Origin: a virus
Taxonomy: Duplodnaviria > Caudoviricetes
IMG/VR virus record: IMGVR_UViG_3300049210_000044
Location: 1-42,426 of that record
Direction: 5' to 3' (one strand)
Length of the DNA: 42,426 bases
A model generated the notes under the pieces. The model did no database searches. It was not told the origin of the DNA and saw only the letters and a list, made by a program, of their open reading frames with translations. Of this stretch, positions 3,065 through 40,851 are shown one piece after another; the stretch's first letter is position 1; each line of letters starts with the position of its first letter. A program made the translations under genes and the position numbers.

Positions 3065-3238
3065 TCAGTCTTCTTCCCGCAACTCCTCCGGGCACGGGGC
3101 GCCCAGCTCCTCCATGACCCCCGCGAGATCCATGGCATCGAGTCCGTGGCCGTTGTTGACCGAGATGATCCAGTCCCACACCGCCGCTGTGACGAGCTCC
3201 AGCGTCCGGGACGGGCCGGGGGTCGAGAACTCCATCAC
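3065..3238 (-). CDS. Hypothetical protein (57 aa, not in ORF track)
   Basis: GTGA-coupled start; MMEFSTPGPSRTLELVTAAVWDWIISVNNGHGLDAMDLAGVMEELGAPCPEELREED. Confidence 0.7.
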   Translation of the reverse strand: MMEFSTPGPSRTLELVTAAVWDWIISVNNGHGLDAMDLAGVMEELGAPCPEELREED

Positions 3239-3369
3239 TTCCCCTTAGGAGTGCCCGGAACGGGCTTGTCGGGTGCCGGGAACCAACCGCCCCTAGAAGC
3301 CTGGTAGGTGGTTTTCTGGGACTCCCTGCGGGGGTCGTCCTCGGCCAGCTTGGGCTGCTTGAGAGTCAT
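3235..3369 (-). CDS. Hypothetical protein (44 aa)
   Basis: ATGA-coupled in the operon; MTLKQPKLAEDD... Confidence 0.6.
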   Translation of the reverse strand: MTLKQPKLAEDDPRRESQKTTYQASRGGWFPAPDKPVPGTPKGK

Positions 3370-3704
3370 GTCGTCCCTGCTTCCTTGGTGATCTCTTCTG
3401 TCATCCAGACGCTGTTGCGCAGGACGAGCCATCGGTTGGTGTGGCTCTGATCCCGCACCACGCCGACCTGCGGTTCTTCCTTAGAGCCCCTCTCGGGGAC
3501 CGGTGGGGGAGCGGGGTTAGCTTCACGGGGCATCCTTTTCGCAGCCCAGATCAGCGAGCCCCACCCGGTTACCCACAGGAGACCTACTCCGAGGTCGGGG
3601 GCCTTGGTGAACAGAACGACGAGGACCACGGTGGCCGGGACTGCGAGGACGCACCCGCATCCTCGGCGGTCCAGGCCACCATCTTCCTCAGGCTCCTCGC
3701 TCAC
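3366..3704 (-). CDS. Two-TM membrane protein
   Basis: GTGA-coupled; two hydrophobic segments followed by a Pro-rich tail. Confidence 0.7.
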   Translation of the reverse strand: MSEEPEEDGGLDRRGCGCVLAVPATVVLVVLFTKAPDLGVGLLWVTGWGSLIWAAKRMPREANPAPPPVPERGSKEEPQVGVVRDQSHTNRWLVLRNSVWMTEEITKEAGTT

Positions 3705-3904
3705 CGCTTCCACTTGCGGTAGTGGACCCGCTGATCGCCCCACGGAATCCACCGGTTCGAGTCCCGTTGGCGGACCATCATCCGGGCCTGGATGGTGATC
3801 GGTGTGGGGGTTGTCCACGCGTGGTCACCGCACCCGTGGAACCTCTGCGGAGTCCCGCACCGGCTACAGCTGTAGGGCTCTCGGCTGTCCCAGTAGACAG
3901 TCAT
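3701..3904 (-). CDS. Small Zn-finger-like protein
   Basis: CSRCG...H...H pattern; ATGA-coupled. Confidence 0.65.
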   Translation of the reverse strand: MTVYWDSREPYSCSRCGTPQRFHGCGDHAWTTPTPITIQARMMVRQRDSNRWIPWGDQRVHYRKWKR

Positions 3905-4407
3905 GCGATCGCTCCGAACAGCAGGGCCCCGACCTCGTTGGCGCCCTGGGCGAGAGGTACCGCCGCAAGACCAGCCACCCCGGATGAGGTGCCGAGACAC
4001 AGCCCGCAGATCATGCCCCGGGTGACGACGGTCTTCCAGGGCTTCTTACGGCGTATCGCGAACACGACCACGGTGAGCAGGACTACCAGGGCGGACCCGG
4101 TGGTGGTGAGGGGCAGGTACGCCCCGTGAGAGACCTGCCCCGGCTTGACTCCTACTCCGAGCCACAGGGCCGCGTCCCCGAGCCAGTTGAGGGCCCACAG
4201 GGCCGTATCGAACCCCCACCCGATAAGTCCCATCACCGAGAGGATCCCGAGGGCCCCGTACGCCCACGCAAGGAGGAACGGGGCGAGATCCAGGGCGAAC
4301 GGAACGGGCTTCTTCTGGAGTTGCTTCCACCCCGGATACCACTCGATCAGGTGGTTGAGGAGAACGCCGAGGCCGACAGTGACCCCGCCGAGGGTCGCCC
4401 AGATCAT
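3901..4407 (-). CDS. Multi-pass membrane protein
   Basis: Start MIWATLGG; about 4 hydrophobic segments; ATGA-coupled. Confidence 0.75.
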   Translation of the reverse strand: MIWATLGGVTVGLGVLLNHLIEWYPGWKQLQKKPVPFALDLAPFLLAWAYGALGILSVMGLIGWGFDTALWALNWLGDAALWLGVGVKPGQVSHGAYLPLTTTGSALVVLLTVVVFAIRRKKPWKTVVTRGMICGLCLGTSSGVAGLAAVPLAQGANEVGALLFGAIA

Positions 4408-4664
4408 CGCCGCCCCCGGATGCTCAGCACCTTGTTGTAGATGGTTCGCCAGTCGGCACGCTGCTGCCAGTAAGGCTTCTCGCCCTCCGGTCGCTTCGCC
4501 CCGCCAGTCAGAAAGAGGAAGACCGATCCGGGCTGTACCCGCTGTAGGACCTTGACGCTGCAGACGTACTTGACGTTGGGCAGCTCCCCGTTGGGGTCCT
4601 GCTTCCAGCACCACTTTTCGAAGTGCAGCTGGTCCTTGGCGATGACGTACACGGTGGGGCTCAT
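4404..4664 (-). CDS. Hypothetical protein
   Basis: Start MSPTVYVIAK; ATGA-coupled at both ends. Confidence 0.65.
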   Translation of the reverse strand: MSPTVYVIAKDQLHFEKWCWKQDPNGELPNVKYVCSVKVLQRVQPGSVFLFLTGGAKRPEGEKPYWQQRADWRTIYNKVLSIRGRR

Positions 4665-5374
4665 GACGTCTCCCCGAGGTAGGTGAGCAGCCGACCGGCC
4701 CGGTCCTGACCGATACCGGCGTACTTCTTGAGACCCCGGACGCTCGGGCGCGTACTCGCCACGTCGCACTCAGCCAAGTACGCCTGGGCGCTGGGCAGGT
4801 GCACCGCGTCCTCCGCACTCAGCGGGATGGACCCGGCGGGTACAGGTGCGGGTGCGTGCACCCGCTCGATGTACTCGCCCAGGTACGCGGGCGGCAGGGG
4901 CGGGAGTGCGGGTGCACTCGGCACAGGTGCAGCGGGTGCGGGTGCACTCGGGTGCACCTGCTCCGCCAGGAACTCCGGCAGCCACTCGGCATCGGCGCCA
5001 GGTACGTCAGGTACGTGTACCTCGGGGTGCTTCACCGCACCCGAGTGCGACCTGAGTACGTGGCCCCGCCAGACCAGGATGGGTACGAGTGCACCCACGG
5101 CCGAGTACAGGCCCCAGTGGAGGGGAAGTACGCCCGCCGTGACCAGGATGGAGGCGACGTTGGCCGCGACCATGACGAACACGGCGGGAAGTACGTCCTT
5201 GTGCTTCTGGAGTGCACGGATGACGTAGAGGTCGAGTGCGCCGGGTACCGCACTCGCCACAGCCCAATTGAGGCCGGTGGCGAGTGCGAGGGTGTACTCG
5301 GCGTGCGCTGTGGCTACGAGTGCGCACCCGAGCTGCGCCCACAGGATCCAGTCCTGTCGAGTACGCGTATTCAC
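4661..5374 (-). CDS. DUF2637/SpdA-like membrane protein with C-terminal winged helix
   Basis: About 4 N-terminal TMs (TAHAEYTLA..G...AVPGALD), Pro/Ala linker, C-terminal PSVRGLKKYAGIGQDRAGRLL resembling the FtsK-gamma wHTH. Confidence 0.75.
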   Translation of the reverse strand: MNTRTRQDWILWAQLGCALVATAHAEYTLALATGLNWAVASAVPGALDLYVIRALQKHKDVLPAVFVMVAANVASILVTAGVLPLHWGLYSAVGALVPILVWRGHVLRSHSGAVKHPEVHVPDVPGADAEWLPEFLAEQVHPSAPAPAAPVPSAPALPPLPPAYLGEYIERVHAPAPVPAGSIPLSAEDAVHLPSAQAYLAECDVASTRPSVRGLKKYAGIGQDRAGRLLTYLGETS

Positions 5375-5818
5375 GGCCGCACCACGGTGAAGGTGCAGGT
5401 GCACTCGGAGTAGGTGCACCCGTCCTTACCGTGCGAGTACACGAGCCGGTGGGTGCAGGTGCACTCGGCAGTGGGTGCGGGCTTGGGGCTGGACTCCACC
5501 AGCGGAGGAGCGATGTACTCGGGTGCACGCCAGGTACGGGGACAGGTGCACCCGTCGGCAGCGGTGCACCCCTGGTGCTTACGCTCCGACCAGAGCAGGT
5601 GCAGCGCCATCGGATGCCCGCAATCGGGGCACGGCGAGTACGGTCCGAGTTCAGTCGGCTGGCACGGGTCACCGGGCTGCCCGTGGCTGTCGGACCAGGG
5701 ACCCCCACAGACACCGCACTCAGGTGCGGTCGGGGGCTCCTCTGCGGCAGCTACAGGTGCGTCCGCCCCGTGGGCGAAGTGCACCCGCCCGTTGAACTTG
5801 GCACAGGTGCAGTACTCG
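4752..5818. repeat. Dense dispersed (C)RRGTRC / GTGCAC motif field
   Basis: About 65 hand-counted RRGTRC hits on both strands in 1.07 kb, versus about 5 expected from base composition. Confidence 0.9.
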
Positions 5819-6081
5819 GGTCCCTCCGGAGCGATGGGGTGAGCGTCGGCAGCGGTGATGGGGTTGGATGCGGGCTGAGGCTGGAGCCACTCACCCAGGG
5901 CGGTGCGCAGCTTCGCGACCGCGTCCCTGTTGAGGCAGCCCACGTAGCGCCGCGCGCTCGGGAGAGAGTCGACCTCCACGTAGAGGTGGAGGTGTTGGTG
6001 GTGGCCCTGCCGGATCTCTGTCAGGTCCCCATCAGCATCGACATGACTGAAGATCACTCCACCGGGATTGCTGCTCATCAT
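5371..6081 (-). CDS. Cys/His-rich hypothetical protein
   Basis: Repeated CTC, CxxC and H motifs; coupled to both neighbours. Confidence 0.7.
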   Translation of the reverse strand: MMSSNPGGVIFSHVDADGDLTEIRQGHHQHLHLYVEVDSLPSARRYVGCLNRDAVAKLRTALGEWLQPQPASNPITAADAHPIAPEGPEYCTCAKFNGRVHFAHGADAPVAAAEEPPTAPECGVCGGPWSDSHGQPGDPCQPTELGPYSPCPDCGHPMALHLLWSERKHQGCTAADGCTCPRTWRAPEYIAPPLVESSPKPAPTAECTCTHRLVYSHGKDGCTYSECTCTFTVVRP

Positions 6082-6467
6082 TCATCTCCTTCCGGCTCCC
6101 AGGGGAGCCATTCTTTGGGCCCGGGGCCCGTCAACTGGCGGAAGTGCACGGCCATGAGGCCGGTAGTCGCGTGCTTGGCCTTGAAGGCGACCAGCGGAAG
6201 CGCACGGGCCCTGAGGGCCAGCTCGCTTACCTTGCGACGCTCAGCGGGGGAAATCACCGGGTTGGTGATCTTGCACTGGATGAACAGGACGTCCGGGTGG
6301 AGGCCGTAGTTCTCGCGAAGCCCGTTGCCGGTCTCGGGTCCTACCGCCACGACGTCCACGGCGCCACGGGAACCGGAGGAGCGCAGGCACGTGTACCCGT
6401 ACTTCTCAAGTTCGTGCATGACGTCCAGTTCGAAGTTGGCGCCCTGCCGAGTGGTGTTACGCGCCAT
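6078..6467 (-). CDS. Holliday junction resolvase (Hjc-like PD-(D/E)XK nuclease)
   Basis: GANFE...GY...RSSGSRGAVDVVA...LFIQCK signature. Confidence 0.85.
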   Translation of the reverse strand: MARNTTRQGANFELDVMHELEKYGYTCLRSSGSRGAVDVVAVGPETGNGLRENYGLHPDVLFIQCKITNPVISPAERRKVSELALRARALPLVAFKAKHATTGLMAVHFRQLTGPGPKEWLPWEPEGDE

Positions 6468-6594
6468 CCCGCTCGTTCTCCTTGTCCCACCGGCGTGCCC
6501 GGTAACGGTCAAGGAGGGTGCCGATCGTGAGGACGATGCCGCCTACGATCAGCCCCAGTCCTCCGGCCGCGTACATCTGCATGCCCCAGTTCAT
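6457..6594 (-). CDS. Small single-TM protein (45 aa)
   Basis: RBS AAAGGA; MNWGMQMYAAGGLGLIVGGIVLTIGTLLDRYRARRW... Confidence 0.7.
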   Translation of the reverse strand: MNWGMQMYAAGGLGLIVGGIVLTIGTLLDRYRARRWDKENERDGA

Positions 6595-6600
6595 GGGGTG

Positions 6601-6664
6601 TCCTTTCTTCGGTTGTGGGATGCCTCCGGGCGGGAGTCGAACTCGCCCTGCGACCATCGGAGGC
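6601..6664 (-). ncRNA. Mini tRNA-like leader element, copy 1, with RBS
   Basis: Minus strand GCCTCCG-ATGGTCGCAG-GGCGAGTTCGACTCCCGCC-CGGAGGC-ATCCCACAACCGAAGAAAGGA; near-identical to 7623-7685. Confidence 0.7.
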
Positions 6665-6671
6665 GGAAATA

Positions 6672-7460
6672 CTAGACGGGCATGACCATCGGCTCTTCGG
6701 CCGTGTGGGCGATGGTTGCCAGGTAGCGGCCCTCACGCAGCGCGTTCCAGGCCCGGAAGTAGAGGCCGACGTGCTGGTGGAAGGGAACGTTCTTCGCGTT
6801 CACCTTGTCGCGCAGGAGGCGGTTGCGCAGGGTGAGGATGGGGTGACCGTCGTACAGCTCGACCCCGGTACCCAGCTGGGCGAAGAACTCGGAACACGCA
6901 CCCTCATCGAGCTGGAGCAGGATGTGGTGAGTGGTGCCGACCACGGTGGCGACAGCGGGCCGGTAGCTGCGGTTGGTGCGGGTACCGATCTCGGCTGAGC
7001 GCCGCAGGCTCGGGTACTTCTCCAACACGGTGAGGAGCTCCGTGGAACTGGGACGGTCCGTGTTGGTGAACTTGCGGTTACCCAGGTCCCACAGCCAGAC
7101 GCGGCGGGCGACGGAAGCGAGAACGTTGCTATTGGTCTCGCCGTGAATGGCCATGACGTCGCCGGTGGTGCGCTTGCGGCCGGAGTCCATGGTGTCCTGG
7201 GCTGCGTAGGGCAGCCCCTCCACCACGAGGATTTCTACGGCCGTGTCTGAGGCGACGATGGCTGCCAAACGGTGCTGTCCGTCCAGGAGCACTCCGTCGT
7301 GAGCGCGCTTGACGGTCTCGCCGTTGCTGAGCCAGAGACCGGCGCGCATCTCCCGGGCGTAGTCGGCTACGAGCTTTGCGTTCAGGTTGCGGTTGTTCGG
7401 GTTGTCCTTGAGCCACTCGGCAGCGATCTGCGGGGTGACGAGAACGAGGTTGATCCTCAC
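6672..7460 (-). CDS. ParB/Srx-fold (DGQHR-motif) protein
   Basis: TPQIAAEWL..N.NNR...V..YA..M..G.W..NGE...LLDGQHRLAAIV. Confidence 0.8.
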   Translation of the reverse strand: MRINLVLVTPQIAAEWLKDNPNNRNLNAKLVADYAREMRAGLWLSNGETVKRAHDGVLLDGQHRLAAIVASDTAVEILVVEGLPYAAQDTMDSGRKRTTGDVMAIHGETNSNVLASVARRVWLWDLGNRKFTNTDRPSSTELLTVLEKYPSLRRSAEIGTRTNRSYRPAVATVVGTTHHILLQLDEGACSEFFAQLGTGVELYDGHPILTLRNRLLRDKVNAKNVPFHQHVGLYFRAWNALREGRYLATIAHTAEEPMVMPV

Positions 7461-7482
7461 TGGTTCTCCTGAGAGATCTGGA

Positions 7483-7509
7483 GAACGGACCCCTTCACCG
7501 GGTCCGTTC
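7483..7509. terminator. 10-bp stem-loop
   Basis: gaacggaccc-cttcacc-gggtccgttc, intergenic. Confidence 0.6.
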
Positions 7510-7516
7510 GGGGTGG

Positions 7517-7615
7517 TTACTTACCGGCGGACTTGAAGATCGCCATGATGAACAGGACGAGTGCCCAGAACGCCGTGGCACCGAGCGCCCCGATGATGAG
7601 CGGGCTGACGTACAT
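7517..7615 (-). CDS. Small single-TM peptide (32 aa, not in ORF track)
   Basis: RBS AAAGGAG; MYVSPLIIGALGATAFWALVLFIMAIFKSAGK. Confidence 0.7.
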   Translation of the reverse strand: MYVSPLIIGALGATAFWALVLFIMAIFKSAGK

Positions 7616-7622
7616 GACTTGC

Positions 7623-7685
7623 TCCTTTCTTCAGTTGTGGGAGTGCCCCGGGCGGGAGTCGAACCCGCCCTGCGACCATCGGGGC
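7623..7685 (-). ncRNA. Mini tRNA-like leader element, copy 2, with RBS
   Basis: Minus strand GCCCCG-ATGGTCGCAG-GGCGGGTTCGACTCCCGCC-CGGGGC-ACTCCCACAACTGAAGAAAGGA; canonical T-arm GCGGG-TTCGACT-CCCGC. Confidence 0.7.
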
Positions 7686-7691
7686 TGTGTT

Positions 7692-7835
7692 TCAGGAGGA
7701 GAGCAGACCGTCCAGGTAGGCGTTCATCCGCTTCTCAGCGGCCAGGGCCTGGCGACCGGTGCCGGTGTTGCAGGCCTTGGTGTAAGCCGCGCACAGCTTG
7801 TGGAGCTGGTTCTTCTGGGCGGGGGTGAGATTCAT
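7692..7835 (-). CDS. Hypothetical protein (47 aa)
   Basis: RBS GAAGGA; first gene after a conserved promoter; MNLTPAQKNQLH... Confidence 0.65.
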   Translation of the reverse strand: MNLTPAQKNQLHKLCAAYTKACNTGTGRQALAAEKRMNAYLDGLLSS

Positions 7836-7846
7836 TTCGTTTCCTT

Positions 7847-7908
7847 CCGACCGGGCTTTGGTGTCTTGAGTAAAGCAAGCCGGACCCATCACTGTCAACC
7901 GTTGCCAA
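7847..7908 (-). promoter_or_regulatory. Conserved phage promoter, copy 1
   Basis: TTGGCA-ACGG-TTGACA...TTGCTTTACTCAAGACA-CCAAAGCCCGGTCGG. Confidence 0.8.
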
Positions 7909-9550
7909 CGAAGCGATCAAAGAGGCGGCCCCCCATCGCCACACCGATGGCTGCTGACAGCTCGCCCTTGGTCATCGCGTCGGCCCCCTGGATCCCCAGG
8001 CGCTCGGCGAACAAGATCTGCTTGTCAGAGGCTTTCTGCTTGCGCCATGACGCGCTGCGGGCCACGGAGAAGTCGGTGTGGTCCTCCGAGACGGCCTCGC
8101 CCCAAGCCATGGCCGTACCGACATCCAGGGCCGTGTAAGCGGTCCTCTGCCACCTCTGCCCCTCCTCGGCCACGCAGACGTCCCACAAGCCGTTCTGGTC
8201 CGGCGTGGGCCACAGGAACACCCTCGCCTTTCCACAGTCGATGAACATGACCCCGGCGGGGGTGCGCAGCCACGCGACCGAGGAGGCACCAAAGGTGTCC
8301 ACGTCGCGCATCTTCAGGTCGAAAGCGAGGGAGCCGCCCTTCAGGACCTGCTTCTGCCTCTGCTCGTCCTGCTCCGCCTCACGAACCACAGCCTCGGCCA
8401 GGGACTCGTCAGTCTCGATCGAGTGGACCGCCCCCGGCTCCAGATCGATCAGGGTCCGGAGCTTGTTGGAGGACGCGCCCACCAGGTCGAGTACCAACGC
8501 CTCTTTCTTGCCCGGCCACGGCCGCAGCACCCGCCCCACCATCTGGGTGTACAGCGGCGCCGACTGAGTGGGGCGTGCGATCACGGCGACCTCGGCCTGA
8601 GGCATGTCAAAGCCCTCGGTGAGGACCATGCAGTTGACCAGGACTTGGCACTTGCCTGTGCGGAAAGCTTCGTAGGTCTTCTGTCGGTGTTCCCGATCGG
8701 TCTCCCCGTCGACAACCCCGGACATGATCCCTGCTTCACGAAGAGCCCATGCGGCCGCGTGCGCTGTCTCCACGGTGGGCGTGAACACGATGCCCTGCCG
8801 GTCTCCTGCGTGCTCCTTGTAGGCCCGTGCAATGGCTGTGTCGGCCTCGGACTCCATGAGGGCCCGACCGAGGTCTCCAGCCTGCCAGTCCTTCATGGAC
8901 GTCTTCACCGCGCCCAGGTCGAAGCCTTTCAGATCGATCTGCTTGGTGCGGACGTCGGTCAGGTAGCCCTTAGAGATCATCCAGAGAATCGACCTCTTGT
9001 AGACCACGTCCTCCCAGACAGCCCCCAGTCCCACCTTGTCGCCCCGCGCCATCGTCGCTGTGACACCGAGCTGGAGCGCATCGGGGAACGCGGCGTAGAT
9101 CTTCTTGTACGACGCAGCTGCGGCGTGGTGGCATTCGTCCGTGATGATGAGGCCGATCGGGCCCACATCTTGCGCCCAATCCTTCATCTCCCGGAGTGCT
9201 TTGTCTCTGCTCAGAGTCTGCACGGAGCAGACCATCACATCGGCAGCTGTCTGCCGATCCTGCGCCTTGACCTTGCCCACGTTCAGCTCCGGTGCGATGG
9301 CCCGGATCTTGGCCATGGCCTGGTCAACCAGTTCGTCCCGGTGGGCGAGGATGATGACGCGCAGGCCCTTGTGCTGGAGCGGCGCATCGTAGTGACGCTC
9401 TCGGAACTCCTTGACCAGCGAGGCGAACACCACGGTCTTGCCCGCCCCGGTGGGGAGCACGATGGCCGGTCGGGTCAAGCCTTCGGACCAGGACTTGAAA
9501 ACCGCATCGATCGCTTCGCGCTGATAGCCGCGCAGCTTGATCTCAGTCAT
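7895..9550 (-). CDS. SF2 DEAD/DEAH-box helicase
   Basis: LRGYQ, LPTGAGKT, DECHH, TAT, LTEGFD, QMVGR motifs. Confidence 0.95.
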   Translation of the reverse strand: MTEIKLRGYQREAIDAVFKSWSEGLTRPAIVLPTGAGKTVVFASLVKEFRERHYDAPLQHKGLRVIILAHRDELVDQAMAKIRAIAPELNVGKVKAQDRQTAADVMVCSVQTLSRDKALREMKDWAQDVGPIGLIITDECHHAAAASYKKIYAAFPDALQLGVTATMARGDKVGLGAVWEDVVYKRSILWMISKGYLTDVRTKQIDLKGFDLGAVKTSMKDWQAGDLGRALMESEADTAIARAYKEHAGDRQGIVFTPTVETAHAAAWALREAGIMSGVVDGETDREHRQKTYEAFRTGKCQVLVNCMVLTEGFDMPQAEVAVIARPTQSAPLYTQMVGRVLRPWPGKKEALVLDLVGASSNKLRTLIDLEPGAVHSIETDESLAEAVVREAEQDEQRQKQVLKGGSLAFDLKMRDVDTFGASSVAWLRTPAGVMFIDCGKARVFLWPTPDQNGLWDVCVAEEGQRWQRTAYTALDVGTAMAWGEAVSEDHTDFSVARSASWRKQKASDKQILFAERLGIQGADAMTKGELSAAIGVAMGGRLFDRFVGNG

Positions 9551-11466: not shown

Positions 11467-11485
11467 AGAGCCTATGCTGACCAGC

Positions 11486-11695
11486 ATGGATACCGAAAAC
11501 ACACGCGTCACGCGCGCGCAGGCAGCTGAGCTCGCAGGGGTCTCGCAGCGCACGATCAACCGGTGGAGCGCCGATGGACTGTTGCGCGTCAGGTACGACC
11601 CCAAGTTCCGGCGGCCCGCCGAGTACGACCGTGAGGAGGTACTGCGGGTAGCTGCCCGGATGAAGGGGATCCGGGACTTGTCGCTGCCCGAGTGA
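11486..11695 (+). CDS. Excisionase/MerR-like HTH DNA-binding protein
   Basis: VTRAQAAELAGVSQRTINRWSADGLL; TATGCT 7 nt before the ATG suggests a leaderless transcript. Confidence 0.85.
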   Translation: MDTENTRVTRAQAAELAGVSQRTINRWSADGLLRVRYDPKFRRPAEYDREEVLRVAARMKGIRDLSLPE

Positions 11696-11708
11696 CTGTA
11701 TTACAGTC
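11678..11708 (+). promoter_or_regulatory. Sigma70/HrdB-type promoter with palindromic operator
   Basis: TTGTCG-N18-TACAGT with ATG 7 nt downstream; palindrome GACTGTA-T-TACAGTC (11694-11708) overlaps the -10. Confidence 0.65.
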
Positions 11709-11714
11709 CCCGCC

Positions 11715-11885
11715 ATGCACTCACTGAACCAGGGCGAAAGCCCGGTCCTCACGGTGCGCGTACCGCAAGACCTCATGGAAGACCTTGACCGGGAGTGCCG
11801 TTCGTTCGGCATGTCCCGGTCCGCAGTCATCCGTCAGATCTTGCGATCCGCTCTGGATCGCGCCCAGTTGGAGGACGCTAAATGA
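11715..11885 (+). CDS. CopG-like ribbon-helix-helix repressor (56 aa, not in ORF track)
   Basis: MHSLNQGESPVLTVRVPQDLMEDLDRECRSFGMSRSAVIRQILRSAL...; ATGA-coupled to the replicase. Confidence 0.85.
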   Translation: MHSLNQGESPVLTVRVPQDLMEDLDRECRSFGMSRSAVIRQILRSALDRAQLEDAK

Positions 11886-38255: not shown

Positions 38256-39046
38256 GGGTTCTGCCTCTCAGTCCAATCGATCGTCTCACCGAGCACTACA
38301 GGCAGGATCGAACACCGGCAGTTGATGACCTCAGCTGCGGCGCCCCGGGGATCGCCCGGGAACAGGAGCAGCGCCCCGCCGACCCGGAACGACTCGGTGA
38401 GCAGGGTGCGCTGCTTGTCCGCTGCCACGTGGGTCGGCCTGGTCCGCTTGTCCTCGGTGCTGATCCACTGCTTGAACGGCGCCGGATCCCCGCGCTGCTC
38501 CGCCTCTAGCTGGGCTCCTCGCAGCACGCCCGCGTTCACCGCCCCGATCGTCTCGGTGCGCGCCACGGTCATGGCCCGGTTGGGCCACCGGTCGGTGCCA
38601 CTGGCGGTCAGCAGGAGCTGGATGTCGTCCCTGACCCGGTCCAGGCTGCGGCCCTCGGTGATGCCCCGCTCGACCTCGGCCACGATGAGGGCGTACACCT
38701 CGTCCGGGACGTTCTTGAGACGGTTGCCAGCCTGGTTGAGGTAGCCGCTCACCCACGGATCCGTAGGGGGGTCGCCCGCCCGCGTCACCCGGCGCCACGC
38801 GTCTCCGAGCACGCCCCGGATCTCGGGCAGGATCTCCGCGTCCACCTGTTCGGTCCAGAACCCTTGATGGTCGCTGACACGTCCGGGGTCCACGCGGTCG
38901 GGTGGTACGACAGCAGGCCGCACCCGGTCCAGGAAGCGGGTCATGGACCGGAACCAGGTCCGTCCGATGCGCCGCTCCCCGTCCCGGATGAATGCCTGGG
39001 CGCGCAGCCTCTGGGGCAGGTGCGGATCCTCGGGAGGGGTGCTCAC
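38252..39046 (-). CDS. MuF-like minor head protein
   Basis: RA..VARTET, KQWIS..D.RTRPTH, FPGDP, INCRC. Confidence 0.9.
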   Translation of the reverse strand: MSTPPEDPHLPQRLRAQAFIRDGERRIGRTWFRSMTRFLDRVRPAVVPPDRVDPGRVSDHQGFWTEQVDAEILPEIRGVLGDAWRRVTRAGDPPTDPWVSGYLNQAGNRLKNVPDEVYALIVAEVERGITEGRSLDRVRDDIQLLLTASGTDRWPNRAMTVARTETIGAVNAGVLRGAQLEAEQRGDPAPFKQWISTEDKRTRPTHVAADKQRTLLTESFRVGGALLLFPGDPRGAAAEVINCRCSILPVVLGETIDWTERQNP

Positions 39047-40851
39047 CTCAGGTACCAGCGAAGCTCGTCACGGTCATGGGCCGCCCCCGTCAGCAAGAGC
39101 TTGGTCACGTACATCTCCAGCGCCACTCGCAGCGCGCCGGGGCGTACCGCGAACGCCTGGGCGAGATCGTCCGAGAACTTGATCTCCACGTGAGCGGCGG
39201 GGTCCTCGGGCCGGATGTGCCGGTAGAGCTCATGACGCGGCGTGGTCTTGAACTGACCCCGGTTCTGGTTGGTGAGCAGGCGCCCGCCCGCCCGGTCCAG
39301 AGCCTGCATGACGAGCACCTCAGCCGCAGCTACCAGGCCCTCGGGCATCTCTTCGGGCTCGGGCTCCTCATCCTGGGTGCCGGGCAGAGCGTTCTGCGGG
39401 GCGGCCGGAGGCTCGGGTACCTCCAACTCACCTCCCGAACCCACCTCGGCATCGACCCCAGCCGCGACCGGGGCGATCTCGATACCGATGTCGAGTGCGG
39501 CTGCTACCTGGGGATCGGACAGCAGGGTGGGCGCCACAGAGACGAGCCTCTCCAGGATGCGCCGTGCCCGCTCCTCCTGGTCCGGCATGGCGTCGATGGG
39601 CACGCCGTTCTCGGTGAGGAAGTACTCGTCCGAGATGAGCACCTTTTCGTACAGCGACTCCAGCGTCTCCCGGTCATCGGGGCGCGCCACGATGGCGGTG
39701 GTGTCCCACCCGATCTCAAAGAGCTCGGCCTGTTCCCGGGTCTTGCCCATGGCGATGAGGGCGGGGCGGAACCAGAACTCGGTGATGACGTCGCCAACGG
39801 CCTTCAGGAGAGGCTCAATGAAGATCTTGTAAGTGCTCTCTTCGACCTGCCAGGCACTCCAGTGGTTGGACTCGCCCTGGGTACCCTCAGCCACGTCCTT
39901 GGGCATATCGAGAGCCGCTGCCAGACGACGCAACGCATCCTGTCGCAGCTCCACCACGGATGCGTCAAAGGTGGAGGCGAAGTCCTGCCAGAACGCCTGA
40001 CTGATCTGCTCACCGGGGACTGTGAGGACGATCGGGACTGTGGCAGCGGCCTGTCCGGGGTTCTTGATGCCTTGCTCGGCCACGCTGAGGAAGAGATCCA
40101 TGATGGCTTCGCCCACGGTGTCGTGGTCGCCCCGGGGGAAGTCGATTTCCTCGGGTACCAGCCACACGCCGTTCATGGCGAGACGGGAGTCAAGACGTGC
40201 GGCGATGGACTGCGTGGCTTTCTCGACCTCTCGGCAGACGGGCAGTGCCGGGCGCACAGAGCTGTCGGCCTTGGCCTGGTCATTGGGGTGGGGTGACCAG
40301 ACACGGATGAGACGGTCCCGGGGGCTGAGGGTTACCAGCACGCCCGTGAAGGGATCCGTGTACTGCCAGCTCTCCCCCTTGGCCTTGACCTTGTCGCCGG
40401 ACAGCACAAGCCACGTGTCCGGCTTGCGCCGGTCGGTCGAGGGTCGGACGATGACCCATGCTTCACCGGGGATCTGCCAGCACAGGGCAATCAGACGCAG
40501 TAGGCCCGCGCGCTGTGCGGGACCGCCCAGGACAAGGGCCGCCGCCGCTTTGGCTACAGAGTCCTCGCTCGGGCCTGTGGGCTTGCCCGTGTCCGCGTCC
40601 AGCTCGGTGGCGTGAAGATCGGCCTGGGAGACCGCGTTGGCGATCCAGACTGTGGGGCCCCGCAGCTCGCCGATGGCGTCGTAGTAGTACCACGCCTCCT
40701 GCTGCCACTGCTCCGTGGTGGCGTGCTGACGGGAGCGGTTGATGGTGAGGACGCCGGGGCCGTTCATGGGCATGCCCGCCGCGACGATGGCTTTGGGCGG
40801 CTGCTTGTCCTCAGACTGTGTCGTACCTCGGAACCTGTCAAAGACACCCAT
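39043..40851 (-). CDS. Portal protein
   Basis: Start MGVFDRF; WQQEAW.YYD.IGEL, RVW.PHP...ADS, NHWSAW; position after TerL. Confidence 0.85.
   Translation of the reverse strand: MGVFDRFRGTTQSEDKQPPKAIVAAGMPMNGPGVLTINRSRQHATTEQWQQEAWYYYDAIGELRGPTVWIANAVSQADLHATELDADTGKPTGPSEDSVAKAAAALVLGGPAQRAGLLRLIALCWQIPGEAWVIVRPSTDRRKPDTWLVLSGDKVKAKGESWQYTDPFTGVLVTLSPRDRLIRVWSPHPNDQAKADSSVRPALPVCREVEKATQSIAARLDSRLAMNGVWLVPEEIDFPRGDHDTVGEAIMDLFLSVAEQGIKNPGQAAATVPIVLTVPGEQISQAFWQDFASTFDASVVELRQDALRRLAAALDMPKDVAEGTQGESNHWSAWQVEESTYKIFIEPLLKAVGDVITEFWFRPALIAMGKTREQAELFEIGWDTTAIVARPDDRETLESLYEKVLISDEYFLTENGVPIDAMPDQEERARRILERLVSVAPTLLSDPQVAAALDIGIEIAPVAAGVDAEVGSGGELEVPEPPAAPQNALPGTQDEEPEPEEMPEGLVAAAEVLVMQALDRAGGRLLTNQNRGQFKTTPRHELYRHIRPEDPAAHVEIKFSDDLAQAFAVRPGALRVALEMYVTKLLLTGAAHDRDELRWYLR

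Follow-up and report, generated by a model that had tools for sequence, protein, structure and literature searches.

The gene at 4661..5374 (minus strand) of a 42.4-kb virus record, which is 100% complete (42,426 nucleotides, hereafter the window), encodes a 237-aa protein made up of a predicted membrane domain, a linker and a C-terminal helix-turn-helix (HTH), and the gene is overlaid, together with the 3' part of its upstream neighbour, by a cloud of 68 short (C)RRGTRCR sites on both strands (4721..5817) that we take to be a binding array. The cloud is real and family-wide, and selection acts on the DNA over the locus. Because related genes change their word when helix 3 of the HTH changes, it is likely that the protein grips its own gene; most simply, these sequence comparisons would mean that the word is read by the HTH, with one base being picked by position 2 of helix 3. 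We consider binding of the cloud by the HTH to be likely; what such binding achieves does not follow from the covariation of word and helix. The best reading, which we hold with modest confidence, is that a protein with its HTH on a cloud over its own gene would act as a membrane tether that moves phage DNA in hyphae, in a design like that of SpdB2.

The initial annotation of this DNA had estimated some 65 copies of (C)RRGTRC within 4752-5818 where about 5 are expected, and this estimate was borne out: the interval contains 67 copies of RRGTRC (44 on the plus strand and 23 on the minus strand), with an expectation of about 5. The word itself proved right but incomplete, as a C does precede it in 49 of the 68 sites (position -1), while position +6 is a purine in 65 of the 68, so that (C)RRGTRCR is the better description. 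In the remainder of the window RRGTRC occurs at 4.7 per kb, and the second-densest stretch of 1067 bp holds 16 copies (38900-39970, head morphogenesis and portal genes). When degenerate 6-letter patterns were ranked with a look-elsewhere correction covering all 81,920 of them, RGTRCR came out best (67 observed against 5 expected, score 111), and the top pattern scores among controls were 12 in 72 other windows of the same genome and 16 in 74 windows of phiC31.

Synonymous shuffling of the cloud gene, the check proposed along with the original claim of selection on DNA, left the enrichment in place (43 sites versus 15.8 +/- 2.6, at most 27 in 2000 shuffles), also after correction for motif choice (score 66 versus at most 34 in 500 shuffles). 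The excess extends over the membrane-coding part (15 sites versus 4.3, maximum 10), the linker-coding part (21 versus 9.9) and, in agreement with the annotated crossing of a gene boundary, the upstream ORF (5371..6081, minus strand; 236 aa, with a Cys/His-rich tail), which holds 25 sites in its 3' 450 nt (16.8 in shuffles, maximum 23) and none in its first 258 nt. The HTH-coding part shows no enrichment over the synonymous shuffle (5 versus 4.4). As the excess extends to the neighbouring ORF and the conserved membrane-coding part but is missing from the HTH part, protein sequence does not explain the cloud. This case also shows a protein sequence that is shaped by its own putative DNA-binding sites. 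Two finer statements of the initial annotation hold in part. The field was said to ignore reading frame, and sites do occur in all six frame/strand combinations, but 20 of the 43 gene sites share a single one; the sites were said to be often fused into palindromes, and nine such pairs exist, but these involve only 18 of the 68 sites. In one strain, a 12-nt in-frame duplication at position 4835 adds motif copies to the linker.

The gene starts with a GTG at 5374 that overlaps the upstream stop. Its product consists of a conserved N-terminal domain (5036..5350) with 3-4 predicted membrane helices, a PGALDLY motif and about 15 sites, many of them at synonymous positions, followed by a variable Pro/Ala linker (4817..5035) whose composition (VH, EY, EC, SAP) mirrors the DNA word and by a three-helix HTH (4664..4816) whose helix 3 starts with GQDRA, all on the minus strand. 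The annotated architecture (about four transmembrane segments, a Pro/Ala linker and a C-terminal HTH) thus stands as to linker and HTH, with three or four as the predicted number of membrane helices. In the structure model there are four N-terminal helical segments (hydropathy peaks of 1.2-2.3), a linker modelled at low confidence and, at pLDDT >90, a C-terminal domain of three helices, and the protein ends after helix 3, with neither a beta wing nor an ATPase. It has no Pfam and no PHROG match. The proposed likeness to the FtsK-gamma winged helix is retained as a weak profile likeness, the wing itself being absent from the model: a profile built from the HTHs of 41 homologues has FtsK as its sole natural PDB match (gamma domain, E 0.013), 5 of 44 family members match the Pfam FtsK-gamma model (best E 0.0055), and structurally the HTH aligns with FtsK-gamma over 44 residues (Z 5.8, rmsd 1.6), tied with other HTH domains. 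Two matches of the profile to designer PPR proteins were set aside as repeat artefacts. Foldseek yielded no match at E <= 0.001, and structure searches with the membrane domain gave generic helical matches only. Homologues number 260 members in one search and 482 clusters in another, and the family occurs on phages and, at weak similarity, on 51 actinomycete plasmids.

Starting from 105 homologous loci, 11 that were short, truncated or lacked upstream DNA were dropped, and removal of 29 redundant ones from the remaining 94 left 65. A cloud over the gene (score >= 20; 12 control segments reach 16) is present in 51 of these 65 non-redundant loci, and 14 show no clear cloud. The words differ between lineages and, as the initial annotation had anticipated for homologues, follow helix 3 across the 65 loci, the matching having been done with the last 55 codons (i.e. 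the HTH-coding DNA) excluded. Helices of the type SDxYGRR go with CGGWAC (CGGAAC) in 13 of 13 loci at 7-fold or more (one outsider reaches 6.9); [GS]TxxA helices (GTxRA, the T class) go with GCACR in 8 of 8 loci at 4.5-8.3-fold, none of the other 57 loci exceeding 1.8-fold; S[RE]ATA goes with TGAGA (3/3), SRR with GGTSAC (2/2) and GWPRA (W) with GGAGC (1/1). For GQxRA (Q) helices the word is GTRCR or ATRCR (cf. RGTRCR) in 27 of 33 loci, and two non-Q loci pass as well. The words of the T and Q classes left an imprint on the linkers, in which EH/GH outnumber EY/EC in 44 of 45 T-class and 7 of 146 Q-class proteins. At L021 the CGGAAC cloud predicted an SDSYGRR helix, which was then found in another frame. 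Identical-scoring gene copies lie 49 kb apart on one contig (L059/L060) and 40 kb apart on another (L087/L088); these pairs may be tandem prophages or assembly repeats.

The match between word and helix is partly ancestry. The partial correlation of word with helix 3, given the tree of the membrane domain, is 0.36 (p 0.001) and that of word with ancestry in the same tree 0.41, both values including one mis-anchored locus (L044); independent-pair tests gave p 0.25 and are, at 3-5 pairs, underpowered. Four tested helix classes are scattered over the membrane-domain tree, as approximately unbiased (AU) tests reject a single clade for T (p-AU 0.018), YGRR (1e-107), SRR (0.001) and ATA (0.034), in an alignment of 59 rows from which 6 long branches had been removed. 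For YGRR and ATA, whose clouds lie for the most part in linker and HTH, some of the match could be explained by block exchange of these parts. Such exchange is unable to give two further cases. At L081, which has a T helix within the Q clade, the upstream flank holds 19 GCACR versus 2 RRGTRCR, and the switched word is also found in the membrane-coding DNA; at L008, which has the W helix, three glycine codons aligned with copies of the word in L004 show synonymous GGT -> GGA changes.

The virus carries terminase, portal, capsid, tail, lysin, helicase and primase-polymerase genes, and the region was found in at least 20 soil or rhizosphere runs from 14 studies, with no RNA runs among the matches listed. 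Eight of nine genome matches for the gene are in Streptomyces, from which we infer the host. No FtsK/TraB, ParA or integrase is present among the window proteins scanned; hence no motor is identified, and the lack of an integrase, next to a MerR-like HTH gene and a small repressor-like gene (11474-11885, plus strand) that precede a 1402-aa primase-polymerase fusion, makes a plasmid-like state possible.

The initial annotation had spoken of a one-gene system, a description that does not fit the company in which the gene travels. Coupled downstream is an 86-aa ORF (4404..4664; relatives in 12 of 66 loci), followed by a 168-aa hydrophobic protein of phrog_16379, a group of unknown function (3901..4407), and by a membrane protein of about 115 aa (3366..3713; family in 38/66 loci), all on the minus strand. 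The 168-aa gene is a partner in 47 of 66 loci, and a second membrane gene follows in 45; in 8 of 66 loci a FtsK/TraB-like gene of about 700 aa follows instead, and the two partners never occur together. For the 168-aa protein no named family and no match to the TraB N-terminus was found. Longer forms of the second membrane protein have a weak profile likeness to a TraB-like C-terminal domain (probability 62%), which would make the phage module a possible derivative without a pump. On the traB-like genes themselves there is a second lobe of the cloud: the first 300 nt hold 8-10 RRGTRC in all five Q-helix loci (p <= 0.004) and one site in each of the three loci with non-Q helices. Elsewhere in the window, the 262-aa product of 6672-7460 (minus strand; phrog_5931, unknown function), with relatives near the cloud gene in 8 of 66 loci, has no Pfam match and carries a DGQHRL motif, which we take to be ParB-like.

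With SpdB2 (of pSVH1 and pJV1) and DUF2637 proteins (PF10935, e.g. phiC31 gp25), which occur on Streptomyces plasmids and phages and often upstream of traB, the window protein shares a membrane domain followed by a C-terminal HTH-like tail; unlike SpdB2, its model contains no coiled coil, and its phage no TraB. SpdB2 is described as a pore-forming, DNA-binding and TraB-interacting protein with four predicted membrane helices that is needed for spreading (PMC4447253). The DUF2637 label given initially could not be upheld, since at the curated cut-off neither the window protein nor any of 44 family members matches PF10935 directly; one plasmid homologue reaches 18.9 bits (cut-off 22.8), the membrane domain aligns to pJV1-type SpdB2 with an hhalign probability of 0.2-0.6, and in the Atlas 23 of 30 matches fall in the DUF2637 set (best 0.90), with the family on 23% of members. 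These values do not establish homology to SpdB2, and the claim is therefore that the protein works like SpdB2, not that it is one; the spd-traB setting, too, is seen in the 8 of 66 loci with a traB-like gene and not in the window.

Clouds are nevertheless present over spdB2 genes of laboratory plasmids that encode an HTH-like tail: pJV1 (16 GTGAGC versus 3.7 in shuffles), pSN22 (9 GTGAGC versus 2.3) and pWTY27 (16 CGCGAA versus 5.1). The name spdB2 was assigned in this analysis to the ORFs of pJV1, pSN22 and pSG5, which the records call hypothetical; relatives of the pJV1 ORF are named DUF2637 or SpdB. In the pSN22 record (L074:5361-6460) the spdB2-like ORF ends early, and what remains of the cloud, along with the HTH-like tail, continues in another frame. 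There is no cloud over the SpdB2-type genes of pSVH1, pSG5 and four relatives, over pIJ101 spdB, over gp25 of phiC31, phiBT1 and TG1, or over OnionKnight gp57; at L114:4909-5906, a weak cluster of GTGCGC (score 18) directly precedes an SpdB2-like gene without covering it. As pSVH1 SpdB2 and phiC31 gp25 lack a cloud, spreading does not need one and the cloud is optional. That pSVH1 has none is in line with the report of non-specific DNA binding by its SpdB2 (PMC4447253).

Among known systems, FtsK-gamma/KOPS and TraB/clt likewise involve short words. KOPS sites are oriented. The window sites lie on both strands within coding DNA, unlike the oriented KOPS or the 150-200 bp intergenic clt array, and, unlike FtsK, the window protein has neither a RecA-type motor nor a wing. 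TraB is described as reading short words through helix 3 (PMC3583192, citing Vogelmann et al.), yet its C-termini showed no similarity to the window HTH in comparisons with HTH profiles. At L120:8998-9154 (NZ_CP022546), a repeat array that directly follows traB is built from CGGAACA, which has the core of the SDxYGRR-class clouds; the C-terminus of the L120 TraB has no similarity to the HTH of that class. SpdA2/sps of pIJ101 resembles the window locus in that sites inside the protein's own gene shape its amino-acid sequence (PMC4170104). It differs in having an N-terminal DNA-binding region with zinc-finger matches and 2-3 twelve-bp palindromes with one word across plasmids (PMC4170104), whereas in the window the membrane domain comes first and the HTH last and 68 seven-bp sites use lineage-specific words; the initial label SpdA-like is accordingly dropped. 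RepAM of pMEA300 is a replication initiator with a hairpin origin (as given in PMC2440964), and no similarity is implied. With regard to ParABS partition, no ParA was found among the window proteins scanned.

In the tether that we favour, the predicted membrane protein would insert and oligomerise in the membrane, as SpdB2 does, and its C-terminal HTH would bind the 68 copies of the 7-bp word at its own locus. As numerous HTH tails, each on a flexible linker, would then meet numerous short sites, avidity would make up for the shortness of the word. With the sites inside the gene, address and reader would be inherited together, and different words would let each element grip its own DNA. The phage genome would thus be held at the hyphal membrane by what is probably the DNA-gripping part of an Spd-type spreading module, which, in elements that encode a TraB-like pump, may present the DNA to it; in the pump-less window phage, genomes may be held or handed on at cross-walls or tips with the help of the neighbouring membrane proteins.

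Alternatively, the membrane-bound HTH might act as a roadblock: by coating its own gene, as well as the traB 5' end, it would keep down the expression of membrane or transfer genes that are toxic. The observed sites do cover the gene and the beginning of traB, and unregulated traB is described as toxic and SpdB2 as pore-forming (PMC4447253). We nevertheless think regulation unlikely, since 68 sites over 1.1 kb, at the cost of two protein sequences, exceed what an operator needs, the gene lies mid-operon with overlapping start and stop codons, and a sigma-70 scan of 3200-8000, a weak test for this host, gave no promoter-like site. A stand-alone, centromere-like anchor that serves replication or segregation, and not spread across cross-walls, would suit a complete genome in which neither integrase nor translocase was found among the proteins scanned, and the in-gene site system SpdA2/sps is reported to affect segregational stability and not spread (PMC4170104). 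Against such an anchor, which we likewise doubt, relatives adjoin traB-like genes that bear the same word, and the cloud-bearing spdB2 of pJV1 is one of the spdB123 genes, to which a role in spread is ascribed (PMC3218068).

It is still less probable that the array has another reader (a host nucleoid protein, the TraB C-terminal domain or a neighbour) or is a mutational by-product inherited with the linker. The duplication that adds sites in one strain and the correlation of word with ancestry would fit this, as would the weak sparing of sites by strain SNPs, of which 2 among at least 24 listed destroy a site versus 5.4 expected (p 0.07, SNPs in the contigs of a divergent relative being left out of the count). 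However, the sites occur on either strand and in every frame, they reach synonymous positions of the conserved domain, and a change of single helix residues goes along with a switch of the word in place; no TraB was found among the window proteins scanned.

Beyond the window, we put forward more tentatively that the membrane tether represents a widespread class of self-addressed tethers in actinomycete phages, plasmids and integrative elements, pJV1 SpdB2 included, each of which would read a private word through an exchangeable HTH in which one residue sets the code (Q reads T, T reads C, W reads A), the genes, and sometimes translocase genes, having been rewritten into word arrays. We found no description of such clouds in the literature on SpdB2, DUF2637, SpdA and TraB/clt that was covered; an earlier notice, for instance in the original SpdB2/pJV1 papers, is possible. 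In the question of how the DNA of plasmids and phages passes the cross-walls of hyphae, the one SpdB2 that has been studied is a non-specific DNA binder. The proposed class would supply a missing specificity step of intramycelial spread and may let an integrase-free phage move between hyphal compartments. With a cloud on the spdB2 genes of pJV1, pSN22 and pWTY27 but not on that of pSVH1, the question is directly testable on laboratory plasmids, and the pairs of helix and word would constitute a natural recognition code.
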